Shown here piece after piece: positions 17,596 through 30,966 of a stretch of 31,783 nt of DNA; position 1 is the first letter of the stretch; each line of letters opens with the position of its first letter. Made by a program: the position numbers and the translations under genes. The DNA comes from Clostridia bacterium (GTDB lineage: Bacteria; Aerophobota; Aerophobia; Aerophobales; AE-B3A). The notes under the pieces are model-generated. The model was not told where the DNA came from. It worked only from the letters and a program-made list of their open reading frames with translations, and did not search any database. The DNA lies in the NCBI GenBank assembly GCA_030610745.1, contig JAUWRC010000001.1, forward strand, positions 1 through 31,783, written 5' to 3'.

Positions 17596-18681
17596 TTGAT
17601 TGACTTATTTCTTGCACCGGGAAGATATATTCAGGAAAGAGGAATATTAAGTAGGGCAGGAGAACTCATCTCATCCTTAGGTAAAAAACCACTATTTTTA
17701 TCTGATAAGTTAGTCTGGTCTAAGGTGGGAAAGATCCTTCTTCACAGCCTAAAGGAAACTAACCTAAGGAGTAGATTTGAGGAATTTAAGGGAGAATGCT
17801 GCAGGCAAGAAATAGAGCGAGTTACCGCCTCAGTAAAGAAGAAAAAAATAGACCTCATTGTGGGCTGTGGAGGAGGAAAAGCTCTAGACACAGCTAAAGC
17901 CGCTAGTTTTTACCTACATCTTCCTGTAATAACGGCTCCTACCAGTGCCGCTACCTGTTCTGCCTGGTCATCCATTGCTCCTCTTTACACAAAGGAAGGG
18001 GTTTACCTGGAGAGCCTGAACCTTCAAAAAAGTCCAAATCTGGCTTTGGTAGACCCCCAGATAATTGCTCAAGCCCCGGCAAGATTACTTTCAGCGGGGA
18101 TGGGAGATGCTTTAGCTAAATGGTGCGAAGGAAGAGTCTCCACCCAGGGAATAAAGAAAGACCTTTCTACCGAGGTAGCATTGGACCTTTCTAAAAAGTC
18201 TTACCATTTAATAAAAAGCATAGGGGTCAAGGCAAAAAGAGATGTAGAAAAGAAAAAAAGTTCTTCAGAATTAGACCAGATTATACAGATTAATATTTTT
18301 TTAACCGGGCTGATAGGTGCATTAGGCAAGGGAAGATGCCGCAGCTCCGCAGCGCATGCCTTCAATTATGGTATGAGTATTTTTAAAGAAACACACGAGA
18401 GCCTGCATGGAGAGAGAGTAGCTTTTGGAATAATAATGATGTTAATTCTTGAAGAACGCAGCGAGGAAGAAATAGACGAACTTTTAAGCTTTTATTCTTC
18501 TTTGGACCTGCCTTTAACTTTGGAAAAATTGGGCTTAATGGAAAATAAGAAGATATTAGTACGATTGGCCAAGGAGATTTGCAAAGAAGGAAGCCATATC
18601 TATAGACTTCCTTTTCCTGTAAATGAAGAAATGGTCTATAAAGCCTTATTAGAAGCAAACGCCCGGGGGAAGAAACTCTAG
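17596..18681 (+). CDS. Glycerol dehydrogenase-like metal-dependent alcohol dehydrogenase
   Basis: PGRYIQ, GCGGGKALDTAK, GMGDALA, AAHAF and LHGERVAFG motifs. TTG start. Confidence 0.85.
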   Translation: MIDLFLAPGRYIQERGILSRAGELISSLGKKPLFLSDKLVWSKVGKILLHSLKETNLRSRFEEFKGECCRQEIERVTASVKKKKIDLIVGCGGGKALDTAKAASFYLHLPVITAPTSAATCSAWSSIAPLYTKEGVYLESLNLQKSPNLALVDPQIIAQAPARLLSAGMGDALAKWCEGRVSTQGIKKDLSTEVALDLSKKSYHLIKSIGVKAKRDVEKKKSSSELDQIIQINIFLTGLIGALGKGRCRSSAAHAFNYGMSIFKETHESLHGERVAFGIIMMLILEERSEEEIDELLSFYSSLDLPLTLEKLGLMENKKILVRLAKEICKEGSHIYRLPFPVNEEMVYKALLEANARGKKL

Positions 18682-22954: not shown

Positions 22955-22975
22955 GGATTCAGGATTCAGGATTCA
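22955..22975. repeat. Heptamer tandem repeat
   Basis: (GGATTCA)x3. A further array ATAGCGT GGAGCGG GGAGCGT ATAGCGA lies at 23017-23044. Confidence 0.65.
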
Positions 22976-23100
22976 GAGGCGTGGTTGTCAAAAACAAGGA
23001 ATGGGCGAAAATTTTAATAGCGTGGAGCGGGGAGCGTATAGCGAATAGTATAAGTTATGACCCATTGCCCTACTTGCCATTATTGCGAGCGAATAAAGAA

Positions 23101-23172: not shown

Positions 23173-23931
23173 CTGCAAGTAGAAGAAATAAGACGCATAT
23201 TGGAGAGAGTAAGAGGGGGAAAGATAAAAATAGAAGAAGCTTTGGAAAAGCTAAAAGTCCTTCCTTACCAGGATCTTGGCTTTGCTAAGATTGATACCCA
23301 TCGAGAACTGCGCAGGCACTATCCTGAAGTAATCTTTTGCCCTGGCAAAACCACCGAGCAAATTATTCATATTGTAAAGAAAATGAGGGAGGCCAAATCC
23401 AAGGTAATAGCTGTTCGAGCTGAAAAAGAAATTTATGAGGCCATTAAAGAGATTCTACCTGAAGCTAGCTATTTTGAAAAAGCAAAGATAGTGGCCGTGG
23501 GAAAGAAAGAAAAAAAGAGAAGTTCTCATATTATATTGGTAGTAACCGCTGGAACAGCAGACATTCCTGTAGCTGAAGAGGCAGCGGTTACAGCAGAAAT
23601 TCTGGGTAACAGAGTGGATCGCCTCTACGATGTGGGGGTGGCTGGAATTCATAGACTACTTGATAATAAGGAGAAGCTATTTCAGGCTAATGTCCTCATC
23701 GTGGTGGCAGGTATGGAGGGAGCCCTGCCCAGTATAGTAGGGGGTCTGGTAAGCCGGCCCGTTATAGCTGTACCTACCTCTATAGGATACGGAGCAAGTT
23801 TTGGAGGAATTTCAGCTCTTCTTACCATGCTTAATAGCTGCAGCCCTGGAATAGCTGTAGTCAACATTGATAACGGATTCGGAGCCGGATATATGGCCAG
23901 TTTAATCAATCGGATAGAGGTGAAAAGATGA
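23173..23931 (+). CDS. larB: Nickel-pincer cofactor biosynthesis carboxylase/hydrolase LarB
   Basis: FAKIDTHRELR..YPEVIFC.GKT, TAGTADIPVAEEA, DVGVAGIHRL, GMEGALPS and VVNIDNGFGA motifs. Start placed at CTG 23173 after AAGGGAG; the track uses TTG 23200. Confidence 0.93.
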   Translation: MQVEEIRRILERVRGGKIKIEEALEKLKVLPYQDLGFAKIDTHRELRRHYPEVIFCPGKTTEQIIHIVKKMREAKSKVIAVRAEKEIYEAIKEILPEASYFEKAKIVAVGKKEKKRSSHIILVVTAGTADIPVAEEAAVTAEILGNRVDRLYDVGVAGIHRLLDNKEKLFQANVLIVVAGMEGALPSIVGGLVSRPVIAVPTSIGYGASFGGISALLTMLNSCSPGIAVVNIDNGFGAGYMASLINRIEVKR

Positions 23932-25145
23932 GGATTGCTTACTTTAATTGTTTTTCTGGTATTAGTGGAGATATGATTCTTGGAGCATTGCTCGATTTAG
24001 GCTGGCCAGTGGAAGAGCTGGAAAAAGAGTTAGGTAAATTAAACTTAACTGGCTATAAAATTAAAGTAAAGAAAGTACAAAAAAAGAGTATTGCTGCCAC
24101 CCAGATTAAGATAGAGACTAAAGGCGACGAAAAGGAAAGAAAACTTCCTCATATTTTATCTATTATAGAAACAAGTAAGCTAGGCAAGGAAATAAAAGAG
24201 ATTAGCAAGAGCATATTCACCAAATTGGCTGCTGTTGAGGCAAAGATACACAAAAAAAGCCCAGAAGAGATACATTTCCATGAATTAGGAGGTCTGGACA
24301 CTATTATTGATGTAGTAGGAGCAGCAGTAGGAATAAAGTATTTAGGGATAGAGAAAATTTATGCCTCCAGCCTTCCTCTTGGAAAAGGTTTTGTTAAATG
24401 TGCTCACGGCACTCTGCCTCTACCTGCTCCAGCCACTTTGGAGCTATTAAAAGAAATTCCTGTCTATGGTAGCCAGATTGAGGCAGAGCTGGTCACTCCT
24501 ACTGGAGCGGCTATTATTACTAGCCTGGCGAAAAACTTTGGTGAAATGCCCTCTATAAAAATTGAAAGCATCGGCTATGGGGCAGGGCAAAGGGACCTCC
24601 CCACCCCTAATTTATTAAGAGTTTCTGTAGGTATAGCAAAAAATGCTTACCAGGAAGATACAGTCTCTTTAATTGAAACTAACATTGATGATATGAATCC
24701 AGAGTTCTACGAGCATGTCATAAATAGATTATTCAAGGAAGGAGCTCTCGATGTTTTCCTCACCCCTATTCAGATGAAAAAGACCAGACCGGCCACTATG
24801 CTCAGTGTTATGGCAAAAGAGGAAAAAATAGAAAAGATGCTCGAGATTATTTTCGAAGAAACCACTACTCTGGGGGTAAGAATCTCTAAAGTAAAGAGAA
24901 AAAAATTAATGCGAGAGAGCCGAGGTATAGAAACCAGGTACGGTAAAATCGAGGTTAAAATAGCCAGGCTCAATGGGGTCATTAAAAACATCGCCCCTAG
25001 CTATGAAGATTGCCAGAAGATTGCTTTCCGTCTTAATATCCCCCTTAAAGAGGTCTATGAAGAAGCAAAAATTCGTATCTCGTCGTGCGTGATGCGTATT
25101 GCGCGAAAAAAAGGAAAAGAAGATGCTCAAACAAATAGCGAATGA
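23928..25145 (+). CDS. larC: Nickel-pincer cofactor nickel insertase LarC
   Basis: FSGISGDMILGAL, E...H, HFHELG..DTI.D, C.HG.LP.PAPAT, ELVTPTGAA, ETNIDDM, MKK.RP and ETTTLGVR motifs. Confidence 0.93.
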   Translation: MRIAYFNCFSGISGDMILGALLDLGWPVEELEKELGKLNLTGYKIKVKKVQKKSIAATQIKIETKGDEKERKLPHILSIIETSKLGKEIKEISKSIFTKLAAVEAKIHKKSPEEIHFHELGGLDTIIDVVGAAVGIKYLGIEKIYASSLPLGKGFVKCAHGTLPLPAPATLELLKEIPVYGSQIEAELVTPTGAAIITSLAKNFGEMPSIKIESIGYGAGQRDLPTPNLLRVSVGIAKNAYQEDTVSLIETNIDDMNPEFYEHVINRLFKEGALDVFLTPIQMKKTRPATMLSVMAKEEKIEKMLEIIFEETTTLGVRISKVKRKKLMRESRGIETRYGKIEVKIARLNGVIKNIAPSYEDCQKIAFRLNIPLKEVYEEAKIRISSCVMRIARKKGKEDAQTNSE

Positions 25146-25734
25146 GCTCAAAAAGCACGCTCCTTTCACTTTTCTTGGAGCTACTACAGGAATCATCATT
25201 ATGGCAGCAGTAGTTTTTACTGATGTTCCTTCCGAAATTTCCCATACTCTTTTTTATATCTTACACCCTCTCCATGTTATATTGAGCGCACTTGTAACTA
25301 CAGCTATGTATAAACGATATAGTAAGGGAAAAGTGTGGGAAGTAATTTTGATTGGTTATGCAGGCTCTATCGGCATAGCTACATTAAGCGATATAGTAAT
25401 TCCTTATTTAGGAGGAAGCTTGCTTGGCATCAAGATAGGATTTCATCTGGGTTTTATTGAAAAATGGTGGCTCGTAAACCCCCTGGCCCTAGCCGGTATT
25501 GCCATCGGCTATTGGAAACCTACAACCAAGGTTCCCCATGCAGGGCACGTATTGTTAAGTACCTGGGCATCACTGTTTTACTTCACAGCATTTGGGGCAG
25601 CAAATTGGATGCCTTTACTTCCTTTTGTCTTACTCTTTTTATTCCTCGCTGTCTGGATTCCTTGCTGTACAAGCGATATAGTTTTCCCCCTTTTATTTAC
25701 CTCGCTACAAAAGGTCCCTCCTTCAAGGAATTGA
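25123..25734 (+). CDS. Uncharacterised six-TM membrane protein with duplicated HxxHV-LS / SDIV-P motifs
   Basis: ATG 25123 overlaps the end of larC. About six hydrophobic segments with His, Asp and Cys inside them. Confidence 0.75.
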   Translation: MLKQIANELKKHAPFTFLGATTGIIIMAAVVFTDVPSEISHTLFYILHPLHVILSALVTTAMYKRYSKGKVWEVILIGYAGSIGIATLSDIVIPYLGGSLLGIKIGFHLGFIEKWWLVNPLALAGIAIGYWKPTTKVPHAGHVLLSTWASLFYFTAFGAANWMPLLPFVLLFLFLAVWIPCCTSDIVFPLLFTSLQKVPPSRN

Positions 25735-25861
25735 TGATACTCTTGCGGTAATCAAGCTTGATATTGAGTTTATCAAAAACGAACTTAAACAGAAAGTTGC
25801 CCGTGACGAATTTGCTGTCTTAGAAAGAAGAGTTAGTATGCTCGAAGCTAAACTAAGTTAG
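25733..25861 (+). pseudogene. C-terminal coiled-coil fragment of a small hypothetical gene
   Basis: Start-less frame DDTLAVIKLDIEFIKNELKQKVARDEFAVLERRVSMLEAKLS* with heptad character. Confidence 0.4.
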
Positions 25862-25880
25862 AGATAACATAAAGTTTCCA

Positions 25881-27014
25881 TTATATCCGAACCCCCCACT
25901 TATTCATTTTGACGTATTTCATCCCACTACCGTCTAATTCAAAATATTCTGATTCTGAACAGGGTATACAGAACTTCTCTCCATCCTTTTCAACAATCCT
26001 TGCAGCCATAATACTTTCTCCACATTTAGAGCATATTATACTATCATAGATAGGTGCATAGTCTGGAATTTCTACTTGCACTTTTTTAACATTGAAGAGA
26101 GATTCGAAATCCAATTCAATAACTTCAAAAGAGACCCTCCTAAATAGTCCCGCTAACTTTCTCATATCCTCATCATTTCCTTTTCTCTCTACTACTACTT
26201 TCTGAAAAAGCTCTTTAGATTCTGGATATTTATTATCCCAAAGTGCATAAGCATCGGGCTTTAAGGAAATCCTCAGACCTTTACCGTCTCTTCTTGTAAC
26301 TGTCACTGCAGTTTTTCCAAAATCCCTGTATATCAAACCGTTATTGCCAAAAGTACAGCCGGTTACAAATTGGATACCATCACTGAAACAACTGTTGGTT
26401 TCAACTATGGCAAGCAACTTTTCCATTCCTTCAGAATGTATTCCAAGCTCTCTTAAGGAATAAGCCCCGGCAATGACACCAAAACTCAAACCTGGGCAGA
26501 AATGCCCGTGTATATCCCCTGCCTTCAATAGAAGAGTCTTTAGATTGCCACTCTTGATAAGGCCGTTTATCTCTGATCTTGGATTAGCCTTTTTATATTC
26601 TTGCCAGACCCTTATTTGCTCGGCTTCATCTAGAGAAGGGACATAAGGTTTTATATCCAAAACAGGTGTACCATCTAAAGCATCCAGGCCTTCGACCTTT
26701 AACTGCCTATCTTTTCTCTCAATGAGTCTAACTGTAGTAACACCGATACTACTTGGTCTTTTAGGGCTGCGAGAAGCAAATACTCCCTTGATTTGGCCGT
26801 CCCATACAGGCCCTTTGAGATTATACCCCTCTGAGAGATGAAAATTAAAAATAACCTGGATATATTCGTTTTTTTCAATACGATAAAGCCCTTCCTCGTA
26901 TTTTGGATCAATAATAATAATGCTTTCATATTTGCGCATCTTGGCAGGATCTGCTCTTTCTTTAAACTTGCTTCTAACTACACCGATAGATTGAAATTCA
27001 GCTATTTTTATCAC
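25881..27014 (-). CDS. TsaA/TrmO-like SAM-binding domain fused to an FmdE-family domain with Zn finger
   Basis: N-half: IGVVRS, IF.FHLS, GVFASRSP.RP..IG.T, LDG.PVLDIKPY. C-half: HGHFCPGL, VETNSCFSDGIQ..TGCTFGN, CSKCGE...CIPC. Confidence 0.88.
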   Translation of the reverse strand: MIKIAEFQSIGVVRSKFKERADPAKMRKYESIIIIDPKYEEGLYRIEKNEYIQVIFNFHLSEGYNLKGPVWDGQIKGVFASRSPKRPSSIGVTTVRLIERKDRQLKVEGLDALDGTPVLDIKPYVPSLDEAEQIRVWQEYKKANPRSEINGLIKSGNLKTLLLKAGDIHGHFCPGLSFGVIAGAYSLRELGIHSEGMEKLLAIVETNSCFSDGIQFVTGCTFGNNGLIYRDFGKTAVTVTRRDGKGLRISLKPDAYALWDNKYPESKELFQKVVVERKGNDEDMRKLAGLFRRVSFEVIELDFESLFNVKKVQVEIPDYAPIYDSIICSKCGESIMAARIVEKDGEKFCIPCSESEYFELDGSGMKYVKMNKWGVRI

Positions 27015-27774
27015 CTATGAACTCCTCTGGAATAACAAAGATTCCTTTTGAGTGATTTATAACCCTAACCTTTATACCATAAACAGCTTCTATATTTTCC
27101 GGGTTAAGTACCTCTAAACCTCCCGCAGCAAAAACTTTTCCATAATTTAACATTATAACCTTATCACTATATCTTAAGGCTAGATTTAGATCATGTATAG
27201 CTATTATTGCCGAAACCCCACTCCTTGTTTGTTCCTTTACCAGGTTTAAAACCTCTAATTGATGTTTTAAGTCTAAATTGGCTGTTGGCTCATCTAAGAG
27301 GAGAATTTTTGGCTCTTGAGCAAGTGCTCTACCTATTATAACCTTCTGCCTCTGCCCACCACTAAGTTCATTGATATCACGTAACGCAAACTCTTCTAGC
27401 TCCAGTGTCCCTATAACATCGGATACTACTTTTAAGTCTTTGGCTGCTGGTGCCCACCTGATGTACGGCTTCCTTCCCATTAATATTGTATCAAACACTG
27501 TCGAGGGAAAGCTTTTTCCATTACTCTGTGGGACATACCCCATTCTCCTGGCAACCTCCTCACTTCCAATGCCCTTAATATCCTTCCCATCTATCATGAT
27601 ACACCCCCGTTGGGGTTTTAAAATTCGATCGATACATTTTAGGAGGGTACTCTTTCCCGAGCCGTTTGGGCCAACGATTGTAAGAACTTCTCCACCCTCT
27701 AATCTGAAGCTAATATTATTTAATGCAGGTGCGCTGCCATAGCTAAATTTTATACCTTTGATTTCCAACTTCAC
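26998..27774 (-). CDS. FecE/BtuD-type ABC ATP-binding protein
   Basis: GPNGSGKST, YVPQ, LSGGQRQ and LLDEPT..LDLKHQ motifs. The GTG start at 27774 overlaps the permease stop (GTGA). Confidence 0.92.
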   Translation of the reverse strand: MKLEIKGIKFSYGSAPALNNISFRLEGGEVLTIVGPNGSGKSTLLKCIDRILKPQRGCIMIDGKDIKGIGSEEVARRMGYVPQSNGKSFPSTVFDTILMGRKPYIRWAPAAKDLKVVSDVIGTLELEEFALRDINELSGGQRQKVIIGRALAQEPKILLLDEPTANLDLKHQLEVLNLVKEQTRSGVSAIIAIHDLNLALRYSDKVIMLNYGKVFAAGGLEVLNPENIEAVYGIKVRVINHSKGIFVIPEEFIGDKNS

Positions 27775-28838
27775 CAGTATTTCCTCCCTTTTATCACTAA
27801 ATATATAAAGAGGGGTGCACCGAGGAAAGAAGTTAGAATCCCAACAGGAAGAACAATTGGCGAGATGATTGTTCTTGCAGCAGTATCTGAAACCAGCAGC
27901 AATATTGCCCCAATAATACATGAGGACGGTATTAGATACCTCTCGTCTCCCCCAATGATTTTACGTACAATGTGAGGTACTACCAACCCAATAAACCCAA
28001 TTATACCAATAAAAGAGACTATCAATGCTGTCACTAAAGAGGCAACTAGCATACCTCCAATTCTCACCCTTTCCACATTTACACCCAAACTTTTTGCAGT
28101 CTCTTCTCCACAGTTCAATGCATTGTAGTTCCACATATTATAGAGAAAATATATTGCAGAAGGGATCACCACTGCTGCGATTATCCATATATCGCTCCAT
28201 GAAGTCCTACCTACATCGCCAAAGGTCCAGAAGATAATAGATGAAAGTTGTACATCTTCTGCAAAATACTCCATGGCTGTGGTTCCAGCTATGAACAACG
28301 ATCCTATGGCCACACCGGTAAGAATCATTGTCTCTGGAGATGCTCCCTTATATTTGGCAAGTAAAATGATTATAAAAGTCGCTACTAAGGAAAACCCAAA
28401 TGCACACATCGTGATTATATATGGATTGTTCAGAATAACGGCATCAACACTGCTGCTTTGAATGGACCCAACACCTAGCACTACGATGGCGAATGCCGCA
28501 CCGAATGCCGCCGAATGGGATATTCCCAATGTAAAAGGCGAGCCGAGCGGGTTTCTCAGTATGCTCTGCATTGCCGCTCCTGATACGGCTAACCCCAATC
28601 CTGCAACTATTGCTGTAATAACCCTAAGAATACGTATCTTCCAAATTATGGTGGATATAATACCATCATCCTGGCCTATCAATGCTGCAATAACCTTAGA
28701 TACCTCAATACGAACAGAGCCCACACTAATTGAAATAATAACCATAAGGAAAAGGAGGGTCATTGAAATCAATACAAAGAGAACCTTTTTCTTTGTATGT
28801 GCTCTATAGCTATCCAGAATGCTCTCTTTACTAGACAT
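27771..28838 (-). CDS. FecCD/BtuC-type ABC permease
   Basis: RILR...A...G..LAVSG..MQ..LRNPL.SP..LG, GEETA.SLG.NV and GIIGFIGL.VPH motifs. ATG 28838 preferred as start. Confidence 0.92.
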   Translation of the reverse strand: MSSKESILDSYRAHTKKKVLFVLISMTLLFLMVIISISVGSVRIEVSKVIAALIGQDDGIISTIIWKIRILRVITAIVAGLGLAVSGAAMQSILRNPLGSPFTLGISHSAAFGAAFAIVVLGVGSIQSSSVDAVILNNPYIITMCAFGFSLVATFIIILLAKYKGASPETMILTGVAIGSLFIAGTTAMEYFAEDVQLSSIIFWTFGDVGRTSWSDIWIIAAVVIPSAIYFLYNMWNYNALNCGEETAKSLGVNVERVRIGGMLVASLVTALIVSFIGIIGFIGLVVPHIVRKIIGGDERYLIPSSCIIGAILLLVSDTAARTIISPIVLPVGILTSFLGAPLFIYLVIKGRKYW

Positions 28839-28860
28839 ATGCCGCCATTCTTTATCCTTC

Positions 28861-29937
28861 CTATTCGAGTTTTTTAAATCCTCCATATTTATCCTTCATA
28901 TCCGAATATACACCCTTTCCTAAGAAGTGCTGGTAAATATCGTCTGCCTTCTTTTCCGGATCTACATCGCTGAATCTATCAGGGAAAAGTACCTTTCCAA
29001 CGTAATATGCATCCGCTAACACTGTAGCGAAATTTGTTGCGTACCAATTATACGGCATAACGCCATATAGTTCCCCGTTTTTCACCGCTTCTATTGAATC
29101 ATATACTCCATCCTTTAAATCGTCCATTATGAGAGAGTAACCGCCTTGGTCTACGAATATTATTTCCGGATTCCATTCTAACAACTTCTCTTTATCAATG
29201 AATGCATGCTCCGTTTCTAGTTCACCGGCTACATTGTTAGCATTGACAAATACAAAGGGTGAATATTCCGGTTCGGTGGATAAAATCCCATGAGCGCCGC
29301 GGTAACCAATGCCACCAATATAGACCTTTTGTTTTTGATTGTTTGTGATGTCCTTGGTCCGGTCATTGAGAGCCTGAATAGTGTCGTCTATGTATTCGAT
29401 GAGTTCTTCAGCCCTGTTCTTTTTACCCATTACCTTTCCCACAAGCCTCAGGTTCTCGTAAAATGTATCCCTATTATCATCAAGGTCTCCATAATCCAGA
29501 GCCACAACTGGTATCCCAGTCTTTTCCTGAAGTTCATCAGCATCACCCACAGTAGTATACGTCCAGAATATTACATCGGGCTCTTGTGCCACAATAAGCT
29601 CTGCGTCACCACCATGTATAGGACCAATAGGAGGAAGGCTAGCAAGTTCTGGATGGGCAAAGTCATAGGGCTTATCGCCCCTTTGCTCGATATCCTCTAC
29701 CCCAACTATTTTATCGATACATTCGAGATATACAAGCAACCTTAATGCTCCTGCTTCGATGCCAACAACCCTATCCACTTTTTCAGGAATTTTAACAGCT
29801 CTATTGAGCATATCTTTGATCGACACCGTATTCTGGGTGATTTTACTTTCTTGACAGATACTCCCTATATACAAAAGTGCAGCTAGCACTACAGCCCCAA
29901 TAGCTACCGTTCCAATCCATTCTTTCTTAATTGTCAT
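28861..29937 (-). CDS. Periplasmic-binding-protein type III (BtuF/FepB-like) substrate-binding protein
   Basis: N-terminal hydrophobic anchor, D.LNRAV.IPEKV.RVV, E.IVA.EPDVI, LQEKTGIP, WNPEII and LADAYYVGKVLFPDRF motifs. Confidence 0.9.
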   Translation of the reverse strand: MTIKKEWIGTVAIGAVVLAALLYIGSICQESKITQNTVSIKDMLNRAVKIPEKVDRVVGIEAGALRLLVYLECIDKIVGVEDIEQRGDKPYDFAHPELASLPPIGPIHGGDAELIVAQEPDVIFWTYTTVGDADELQEKTGIPVVALDYGDLDDNRDTFYENLRLVGKVMGKKNRAEELIEYIDDTIQALNDRTKDITNNQKQKVYIGGIGYRGAHGILSTEPEYSPFVFVNANNVAGELETEHAFIDKEKLLEWNPEIIFVDQGGYSLIMDDLKDGVYDSIEAVKNGELYGVMPYNWYATNFATVLADAYYVGKVLFPDRFSDVDPEKKADDIYQHFLGKGVYSDMKDKYGGFKKLE

Positions 29938-30242: not shown

Positions 30243-30662
30243 TTAGGCTAGCTCTTTCCCCGTGGTAGTCATAGTTAACTTGCCGTGCTTTACACCGCGA
30301 GTGCTTATCAGCTTATCAGCAATAGTCTTAATTTTATCCACTCTTCCCCTTACCAATAAAACCTCCAGACAATTGTCCTCGTCCAAATGCAGGTGCATAG
30401 TAGAAATGATAAGGTTATGGGAATGATGTTGGAGCTCAATCAAAGCCTCTGAAAGCCCTGGTGTGTGATGGTTATAGACAAGGGTGATTGTCCCTGCCAT
30501 CTCTTTTTTCTCTGTCTTCCACTCTTCTTCCACCAGATGACCCCTGATTAAATCTCTTACCGCCTCTGATCTATTGGTATATCCCTTCTTAGATACCAGC
30601 TTGTCAAAATTCTTCAGTAATCTCTTTTCCATAGATACCCCGAATCTTACTATCTCTTCCAC
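30243..30662 (-). CDS. nikR: Nickel-responsive transcriptional regulator
   Basis: RHH domain ([17 protein letters not shown]) plus the Ni site QHH.H...[16 protein letters not shown] 30662 after GAGGTG preferred; alternative start 30671. Confidence 0.95.
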
Positions 30663-30781
30663 CGTACTCACCTCACTTAGTTCATAGTTCGTTGTTCGTA
30701 GTTCGTAGAAAAAGAGGCGAAGAAACAGAGAAGCAAAGATGCAAGGAAAAATCTATGATGAAAACATACCAATTTCTCTAT

Positions 30782-30816
30782 TTCTTGCTTCTTGCTTCTT
30801 GCTTCTTGTTTCTTGT
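30782..30816. repeat. Heptamer tandem repeat in the nikR leader
   Basis: (TTCTTGC)x3 (TTCTTGT)x2. TAGTTCA TAGTTCG TTGTTCG TAGTTCG also lies at 30678-30705. Confidence 0.7.
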
Positions 30817-30937
30817 TTCTTACCACTTATAGCTTATAGTCGATGAACAATGAACTACCAGCGAGCTCATAAGAGCGAGCGTACTATGAACTATAAAACT
30901 TATTTTTATTCTGGATTCAATAATCCTTTTTCGCCTT

Positions 30938-30966
30938 TGTGTTACTATTTTTAATATGGTAACACA
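30938..30966. promoter_or_regulatory. Putative NikR operator
   Basis: Perfect palindrome TGTGTTAC-N13-GTAACACA upstream of nikR, overlapping a predicted -10. Confidence 0.72.

Follow-up and report, generated by a model that had tools for sequence, protein, structure and literature searches.

The window, as we call the whole 31,783-nucleotide (nt) stretch of DNA analysed here, contains a larB-larC operon whose third gene encodes a 203-residue membrane protein, P0001, and all residue numbers below are those of this protein. P0001 belongs to a real, widespread gene family that is so far undescribed, and we consider it somewhat better than an even bet that the members of this new and unnamed family import divalent transition-metal cations, in this case most likely Ni2+ to serve LarC and the nickel-pincer cofactor. 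The family is new but the kind of function proposed for it, metal transport, is already known. The evidence for this function is strong, though indirect. An uptake permease is our preferred reading because the protein is small and built of inverted repeats with the same His/Asp/Cys ligands in both, and because some relatives have His-rich loops and the neighbouring genes include repressors that normally control uptake genes. An earlier reading of this DNA from its letters, which we refer to as the sequence-only reading, had proposed that the two repeats form one intramembrane metal site supplying nickel to LarC. The architecture it described has held up well, and its idea of a dedicated partnership with LarC has not.

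Architecture and intramembrane ligands

The features of the gene and of its product are as follows.

25112-25115, forward strand: AGGA, likely ribosome-binding site, 7 nt before the ATG (sequence read)
25123-25734, forward strand: gene of the six-helix membrane protein P0001, 203 amino acids, stop codon included (table of open reading frames, homologue N-termini)
25123-25145, forward strand: start of the gene overlapping the 3' end of larC by 23 nt (sequence read, table of open reading frames)
25159-25413, forward strand: repeat 1, residues 13-97, transmembrane helices (TM) 1 to 3 (hhalign of the family halves)
25264-25275, forward strand: H48-P-L-H51 motif in TM2; H48 and H51 invariant in 64/64 relatives
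25387-25404, forward strand: S89-D90-I-V-I-P94 motif in TM3; D90 and P94 invariant, S89 in 59/64
25477-25698, forward strand: repeat 2, residues 119-192, TM4 to TM6, predicted to be inverted relative to repeat 1 (hhalign; Lys/Arg topology)
25537-25548, forward strand: H139-A-G-H142 motif in TM5; H139 and H142 each in 62/64
25663-25689, forward strand: C181-C182-T-S184-D185-I-V-F-P189 motif in TM6; C181 in 63/64, C182 in 56/64, D185 and P189 invariant

The N-termini of the relatives, which follow the pattern M-[LIV]-[KR]-x-I-A-x-E-L, match a start at the ATG of 25123. Given the overlap and the AGGA, larC and the membrane-protein gene are probably translationally coupled.

The internal duplication can be assessed by comparing the two halves of the protein. 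A single-sequence BLAST between the halves is marginal (expectation value, E, 0.052), so that a profile test at the level of the family was needed. When the two halves of the 64-sequence alignment are compared by hhalign they match with a probability of 96.3%, an E of 1.9e-9 and a score of 51.2 over 72 columns, with HxxH pairing with HxxH and SDxxxP with SDxxxP. The controls score far lower, with at most 15.5 for 25 column shuffles and 11.2 for a reversed half. By this profile-profile test the internal duplication claimed in the sequence-only reading is a true repeat. Lys and Arg are enriched in the N-terminal tail, in loops 2-3 and 4-5 and in the C-terminal tail, with few of either in loops 1-2, 3-4 and 5-6. 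The topology predicted from this distribution is N-in/C-in, and the two 3-helix repeats would therefore be inverted relative to each other.

The AlphaFold2 model, which was built on 139 relatives, is confident (predicted local distance difference test score, pLDDT, 92.8; predicted template modelling score 0.89) and supersedes an earlier model from 23 close relatives that was unusable at a pLDDT of 46. It has six long helices, at residues 2-32, 37-66, 71-100, 115-131, 136-156 and 163-191, as expected for the roughly 3+3 TM protein of 203 residues that had been described, and an extra short helix at 110-113. H48 and H51 lie in helix 37-66, D90 in 71-100, H139 and H142 in 136-156, and C181, C182 and D185 in 163-191. 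The four His and two Asp that had been placed inside membrane helices are thus all within helices of the model. For a homodimer the prediction gave a score of 0.00, the mark being 0.42, and this counts neither way.

The motif pairs were found exactly as described from the letters, including the CC pair added in the second half. The first half runs H48-P-L-H51-V-I-L-S55 and the second H139-A-G-H142-V-L-L-S146. Conservation was counted in an alignment of 64 relatives with identity down to 28%, and the proposed ligands proved to be invariant or nearly so. The invariant residues are H48, H51, D90, P94, S146, D185 and P189, and those conserved in at least 90% are E8, H12, P14, S89, H108, H139, H142, C181 and S184. 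E8 and H12 precede repeat 1, much as H108 and the less conserved E113 (45/64) precede repeat 2. Four residues before the Asp there is a Cys in 63/64 relatives in repeat 2 and in 34/64 in repeat 1, where P0001 itself has Ala. Because this Cys occurs in both repeats, the ancestral motif was probably CxxSDxxxP in both halves. Several relatives have His-rich insertions, which are found in outer loops (6/64 and 4/64), in the N-terminal tail (8/64) and in the C-terminal tail (8/64).

The same ligands in both halves are typical of inverted-repeat ion transporters. The topology suggests two pseudo-symmetric half-sites at different depths rather than the one site that had been envisaged. The polar stripes H48-H51-S55-T59 of TM2 and H139-H142-S146-S150 of TM5 would run antiparallel and line one ion path, which we propose from helix positions and their periodicity. 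An outer His2-Asp half-site (H48, H51, D90) would take up the cation, which would then cross a central Ser/Thr region (S55/S146) to an inner His2-Asp-Cys2 half-site (H139, H142, D185, C181, C182). The softer inner ligands could draw the cation inwards and help its release to acceptors in the cytoplasm. The full path would lead from an outer mouth at H108/E113 through H48/H51/D90, S55/S146 and H139/H142/D185/C181/C182 to an inner mouth at E8/H12, and transport could be by alternating access or by a channel-like relay.

Genomic neighbourhoods and the transported metal

The family is large, with at least 7,966 proteins matching P0001 in a sequence search and 485 clusters at 50% identity matching the family profile. 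It occurs in Chloroflexota, the window's own phylum, Thermodesulfobacteriota/'Deltaproteobacteria', Planctomycetota and Verrucomicrobiota, and among the archaea in ANME-1 (a group of anaerobic methanotrophs), Syntrophoarchaeum, Methanosarcinales and Bathyarchaeota. The sequence-only reading had recognised none of the metal-transporter signatures that it named, and we find no known family. P0001 has no Pfam or NCBIfam match, and in a search of the 64 relatives against Pfam (E up to 0.1) no family matched more than one relative and all matches were weak. A sequence search of the PDB gave only noise (E at least 1.5), and a feature search among the named clusters of the ESM Atlas gave no usable match. 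The names seen in the source databases are all "hypothetical" or "uncharacterized" or are absent, also in ten diverse clusters, and we found no published description naming this family in the literature searched, the coverage of which is incomplete. Two genomes deserve mention for their own sake. Genome G003 has two full copies (G003:C8 and G003:C230), and in a genome of the window's phylum, at G029:C52:6638-7226, a copy is split in three pieces with internal TGA and TAG stops, for which either a pseudogene or a fault of assembly might account.

The chief evidence on function comes from genomic context, for which the neighbours of 96 distinct loci were scored by unbiased clustering, Pfam and tblastn. 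The expected link to metal genes is repeated across the family (Fur-family regulators, NikR, lar genes, feoB and Mrp/MinD-ferredoxin ATPases), several distant members excepted. The commonest neighbour is a Fur-family gene, which lies at most 200 nt upstream on the same strand at 58/96 loci, in many Dehalococcoidia clades, in metagenome-assembled genomes (MAGs) of 'Deltaproteobacteria' and in three genomes of the window's own phylum. Related genomes are not independent; mapped on the tree, the distribution requires five or more changes of the Fur label and two or more of the NikR label, all on well-supported branches.

In archaea, in two lineages or more, the family member is adjacent and divergent to nikR at six loci (a Methanobacteriota MAG, two Hecatellales/Bathyarchaeota, ANME-1, Syntrophoarchaeum and one labelled Halobacteria). 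A search of 938 kb of loci finds six copies of the dyad TTAWTAA-N14/15-TTAWTAA, five of which are 95-138 nt upstream of archaeal family members (L027:371, L032:4052, L054:1389, L056:6863 and L059:1049) in two archaeal phyla. It flanks a TATA-like TTTAAATA and its span of 28-29 bp matches the geometry of a NikR operator, for which the dyad is a candidate; in L054 it is present without an adjacent nikR.

In the window the gene belongs to a lar operon that faces an operon headed by nikR.

23200-23931, forward strand: larB, at the start of the operon with larC and the membrane-protein gene (NCBIfam LarB NF033503, 305.6 bits, cutoff 175)
23928-25145, forward strand: larC, nickel insertase (Pfam Ni_insertion, 498 bits; NCBIfam LarC1 and LarC2 models)
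25881-27014, reverse strand: TrmO_N-FmdE-zinc ribbon fusion of 377 amino acids with a DksA/TraR-type ribbon, last gene of the nikR-headed operon (Pfam TrmO_N, FmdE)
26998-27921, reverse strand: ATP-binding cassette (ABC) ATPase, nikR-headed operon (Pfam ABC_tran)
27771-28886, reverse strand: FecCD permease, nikR-headed operon (Pfam FecCD)
28861-29937, reverse strand: periplasmic binding protein, nikR-headed operon (Pfam Peripla_BP_2)
30243-30671, reverse strand: nikR, 4.5 kb downstream, at the head of the convergent operon (Pfam NikR_C, RHH_1)
30939-30965, strand not assigned: perfect NikR-box-like palindrome GTGTTAC-N13-GTAACAC, 268 nt upstream of the nikR start, sole match in the window, 0 mismatches

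The order (larE-)larB-larC-gene is found in the window and four relatives, that is at 5/96 loci, all of the same bacterial family and each with nikR no more than a few kb away; genome G008 (genus g3), L003 and the genus of the window keep larE/B/C and the gene in this order. Palindromes with one mismatch to the NikR box also lie upstream of nikR in L003 (10477) and L005 (2564). The motif itself is the NikR signal derived for delta-proteobacteria (PMC545781).

Ni2+ is our best guess for the substrate of the window copy, because this copy would be co-transcribed with larB-larC inside a NikR island. The nickel role that the sequence-only reading assigned is thus the likeliest for P0001 and finds a parallel in the archaeal relatives that are divergent to nikR, but it may not cover the family as a whole, in which the Fur-like regulator is commonest. 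The hand-off of nickel to LarC fares worse as a family trait, given larC linkage at 5/96 loci in one bacterial family. In the window's phylum LarC is present in 25/31 genomes and the P0001-family protein in 13/31, so the protein is no fixed part of nickel-pincer biosynthesis, and for this poor co-distribution we do not favour a specific LarC partner as a trait of the family. Given the Fur-like partners and Fe-S-type neighbours, Fe2+ or a broad Ni2+/Fe2+ range is possible for the family, which may thus have a range of Fe2+/Ni2+ and not of Ni2+ alone. The substrates probably range over Ni2+ and Fe2+, perhaps also Co2+/Zn2+, as set by the regulator of each copy. A more detailed proposal, which we hold tentatively and at somewhat less than an even chance, is that of a family with its own fold which would act as a NikR-controlled nickel importer in archaea that oxidise methane or alkanes (ANME-1, Syntrophoarchaeum, Methanosarcinales) and in Bathyarchaeota, and as a Fur-controlled Fe2+/Ni2+ importer in Dehalococcoidia and other subsurface anaerobes, with a relay through two His2-Asp(-Cys) half-sites.

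Several observations weigh against our preferred reading. No NikR-box palindrome was found upstream of larB in the window, and the window's NikR-linked ABC importer and a DsbD_2-type protein in L003/L005 would make a second nickel importer redundant. The Fur-like neighbours score best against Bacillus-type Fur, yet below curated cutoffs. Most of the Fur-linked loci are from Dehalococcoidia, so the count of 58 overstates the number of independent events. The gene adjoins feoB in the sister genus (clade G001-G003) and feoB lies within 2.5 kb in L003/L005; Mrp/NBP35 and MinD-ferredoxin ATPases, NifX-like proteins and DUF5320 are neighbours in Planctomycetota, a Syntrophobacter MAG and others, sometimes together with Fur or peptide deformylase. 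With contexts of such an iron flavour (feoB, Mrp/NBP35, MinD-ferredoxin, peptide deformylase) the main substrate could be Fe2+. Lastly, no metal genes were found near the distant members P0172, P0205, P0216, P0137, P0125 and P0192.

These points lead directly to the alternative that the protein imports Fe2+ or a broad set of divalent cations, its position behind larC being a by-product of a metal island with no special nickel role. The frequency of the Fur-family regulator, its best score being against Fur models, the proximity of feoB, the Fe-S-type and deformylase neighbours in other phyla and the larger number of genomes with LarC than with this protein would all fit. However, both the overlap of 23 nt with larC and the conserved order of larE/B/C and the gene suggest that it is expressed together with nickel-cofactor genes, the six archaeal relatives are divergent to nikR and not to fur, and none of the Fur-family matches reaches an equivalog cutoff, so that these scores do not fix the metal that is sensed. 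We regard this alternative as unlikely.

A little less likely again is a protein that does not transport at all, for example a membrane protein that binds metal as a chaperone, store or sensor, or a metalloenzyme with an intramembrane His/Asp/Cys site. Intramembrane His3-Asp zinc sites mark hydrolases such as PAQR/alkaline ceramidases and His-boxes mark membrane desaturases, a chaperone, as the sequence-only reading had considered, would suit the coupling to larC, and one relative, P0128, is fused to a methyltransferase domain. However, the identical set of ligands in both repeats would be unusual for an enzyme active site, and no enzyme family or solved enzyme fold was matched. The varied partners of the family (LarC, Mrp, MinD-ferredoxin, deformylase or none) also speak against a chaperone with one client.

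The direction of transport could also be the reverse, with an exporter guarding the cell or LarC from excess Ni, Co, Fe or Zn. Small exporters lined with His/Asp/Cys are known (RcnA/NicO, CadD, MntP), import is already covered by the ABC system of the window, and NikR and Zur/Fur activate genes in some species. Nickel exporters, however, are usually paired with sensors of the RcnR/CsoR, ArsR or MerR type, none of which was seen beside the 96 copies, and co-transcription with a nickel-consuming insertase suits supply more than removal. An Rfam search found no NiCo riboswitch or other element in the window. We therefore judge export improbable, slightly more so than a protein that does not transport, and keep uptake as the preferred reading.

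Surroundings of the gene and wider significance

Other features of these loci may be useful to those who work on nickel or iron metabolism. In L003 and L005 (L003:9074-9781, L005:1154-1861) nikR is followed by the gene of a 235-residue membrane protein of the DsbD_2 type (PF13386) in place of the BtuCDF-type ABC importer of the window, and the putative NikR-controlled transporter is thus swapped between near relatives. The window's genome, at a completeness of 79.5%, yielded 2-3 LarA homologues and neither a PF13386 gene nor a NiFe hydrogenase. Shorter TrmO/FmdE-like genes recur near family members (L007, L054, G010:C21).

Close to the lar genes there are also candidate dehydrogenases. An iron-type alcohol dehydrogenase (Fe-ADH) gene is found 4.5 kb upstream of larB (window 17596-18681), and in the close relative L003 a gene for a GldA-like iron-type alcohol/glycerol dehydrogenase lies within the larE-larB-larC operon (L003:4860-5957). 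By the logic of PMC13524815, NAD-type oxidoreductases beside lar genes may use the nickel-pincer cofactor. Short intergenic tandem repeats are present upstream of larB (GGATTCA three times at 22960-22985) and upstream of nikR (GTTCGT-/TTCTTGC-type units at 30690-30840). Directly 3' of the membrane-protein gene, at 25751-25862 on the forward strand, an open frame of about 37 codons reads by eye like a coiled-coil fragment (…LDIEFIKNELKQKVARDEF…); it lacks a usual start codon and could be what is left of a gene.

In another, recurrent type of cluster (L076:3660-9690, also L064, L067, L071, L078 and L125) a family member is embedded among other genes. These encode Mrp/NBP35 with a fused NifX-like domain, a pair of MinD-type ATPases that carry ferredoxin inserts, an ARMT1-like protein, DUF5320 and NifX-like proteins. 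L076 also has a Fur-family gene at a greater distance upstream, and L125 has a deformylase gene.

The family is abundant in lineages with an energy metabolism that relies strongly on nickel and iron cofactors, such as ANME, archaea that oxidise alkanes, Dehalococcoidia and anaerobes of sediments. Comparative genomics has long pointed to organisms that have nickel enzymes or B12 pathways yet no recognisable nickel or cobalt transporter (PMC2667541). Pipelines that read gene neighbourhoods through Pfam, among them one applied of late to the mining of lar gene clusters (PMC13524815), are blind to the family because it has no Pfam model. If metal uptake is its true function, this would be a transporter family with a new fold that could fill gaps in the metal-uptake reconstructions of uncultured anaerobes. 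It could also provide a compact single-gene nickel importer for the heterologous production of nickel-pincer enzymes.

Fold and comparison with known systems

The model was compared with known structures by Foldseek and by structural alignment, and the result is no confident match but a register-shifted likeness to TRIC. Foldseek against the PDB gave nothing below an E of 0.6 (best 0.6-0.9). In the exhaustive structural alignment a prokaryotic TRIC comes first (5h36_A, Z 10.3, root-mean-square deviation 2.9 Å, 132 residues) and the next unrelated row is at 6.5; according to the alignment tool's own note, a Z near 10 is within the range of unrelated helical bundles. A PF03458 cluster of the ESM Atlas is reached at template modelling scores of 0.58/0.63. 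The superposition is one helix out of register, with model residues 42-192 on residues 4-143 of the chain, and since TM2-6 are placed on TRIC TM1-5 repeat does not fall on repeat. No PF03458 proteins were found in a search of the window's phylum, and neither P0001 (E up to 10) nor the 64 relatives (E up to 0.1) match this Pfam family. TRIC is the nearest known packing and implies no membership. A distant monovalent-cation channel of the TRIC/UPF0126 type, or a small-solute carrier, in a coincidental metal context would fit this first rank and the inverted 3+3 repeats of both, but is very improbable in view of the shifted register, the missing seventh helix of TRIC, the sequence and Foldseek results, the modest Z and the His/Asp/Cys motifs, which TRIC proteins are not known to have.

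As a metal importer the family can be set beside several known systems. It resembles NiCoT/HoxN/NixA, HupE/UreJ and UreH-type permeases in being small and polytopic, with intrahelical His and Asp, and in lying near nickel enzyme or maturation genes and nikR; HupE/UreJ is also of similar size (about 190 residues, 6 helices). The signatures of these permeases are HX4DH in TM2 for NiCoT and HPxxGxDH among secondary nickel/cobalt permeases, and in their place this family has duplicated HxxH and SDxxxP. P0001 has no match to NiCoT (NicO, PF03824), with H-P-L-H-V and H-A-G-H-V and no H-x4-D-H, and neither P0001 nor the 64 relatives match HupE/UreJ (PF04955). For ZIP (PF02535) three long relatives score 17.9-20.7 bits against a gathering threshold of 35.1, at profile positions 45-196 and in the N-terminal parts of proteins with His-rich inserts, and P0001 has no match. 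That no NiCoT, UreH/HupE, ZIP or CDF signature motifs were recognised from the letters is in line with this, none of the NiCoT, HupE/UreJ, ZIP or CDF models of Pfam being matched by P0001. Most copies of this family also differ from NikR-controlled permeases in being located with a Fur-like regulator and not with NikR.

The lar cluster of Lactobacillus plantarum is said to encode its own nickel transporter, Lar(MN)QO, as reportedly described by Desguin et al. in 2014. The role we propose for P0001 would be similar, a nickel supply encoded alongside the larB/C/E cofactor genes. However, Lar(MN)QO is a multi-subunit importer of the energy-coupling factor/ABC type, whereas P0001 is a single protein of 203 residues with no ATPase partner in its operon.

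In architecture alone the family is also like MntP, UPF0016/GDT1, CadD and other members of the LysE superfamily, which have about 200 residues in two inverted 3-helix repeats with a shared polar motif and divalent metal cations as substrates. MntP, UPF0016 and CadD gave no Pfam match and are absent among the structural neighbours listed, and the motifs of UPF0016 and MntP are mainly acidic, in contrast to His/Asp/Cys here. TRIC/UPF0126 remains the closest solved fold, with an inverted 3+3 architecture and a path within each protomer, but it has seven helices (3+3+1) against six here, its likeness is register-shifted and without a sequence relationship, and its conserved residues are others.

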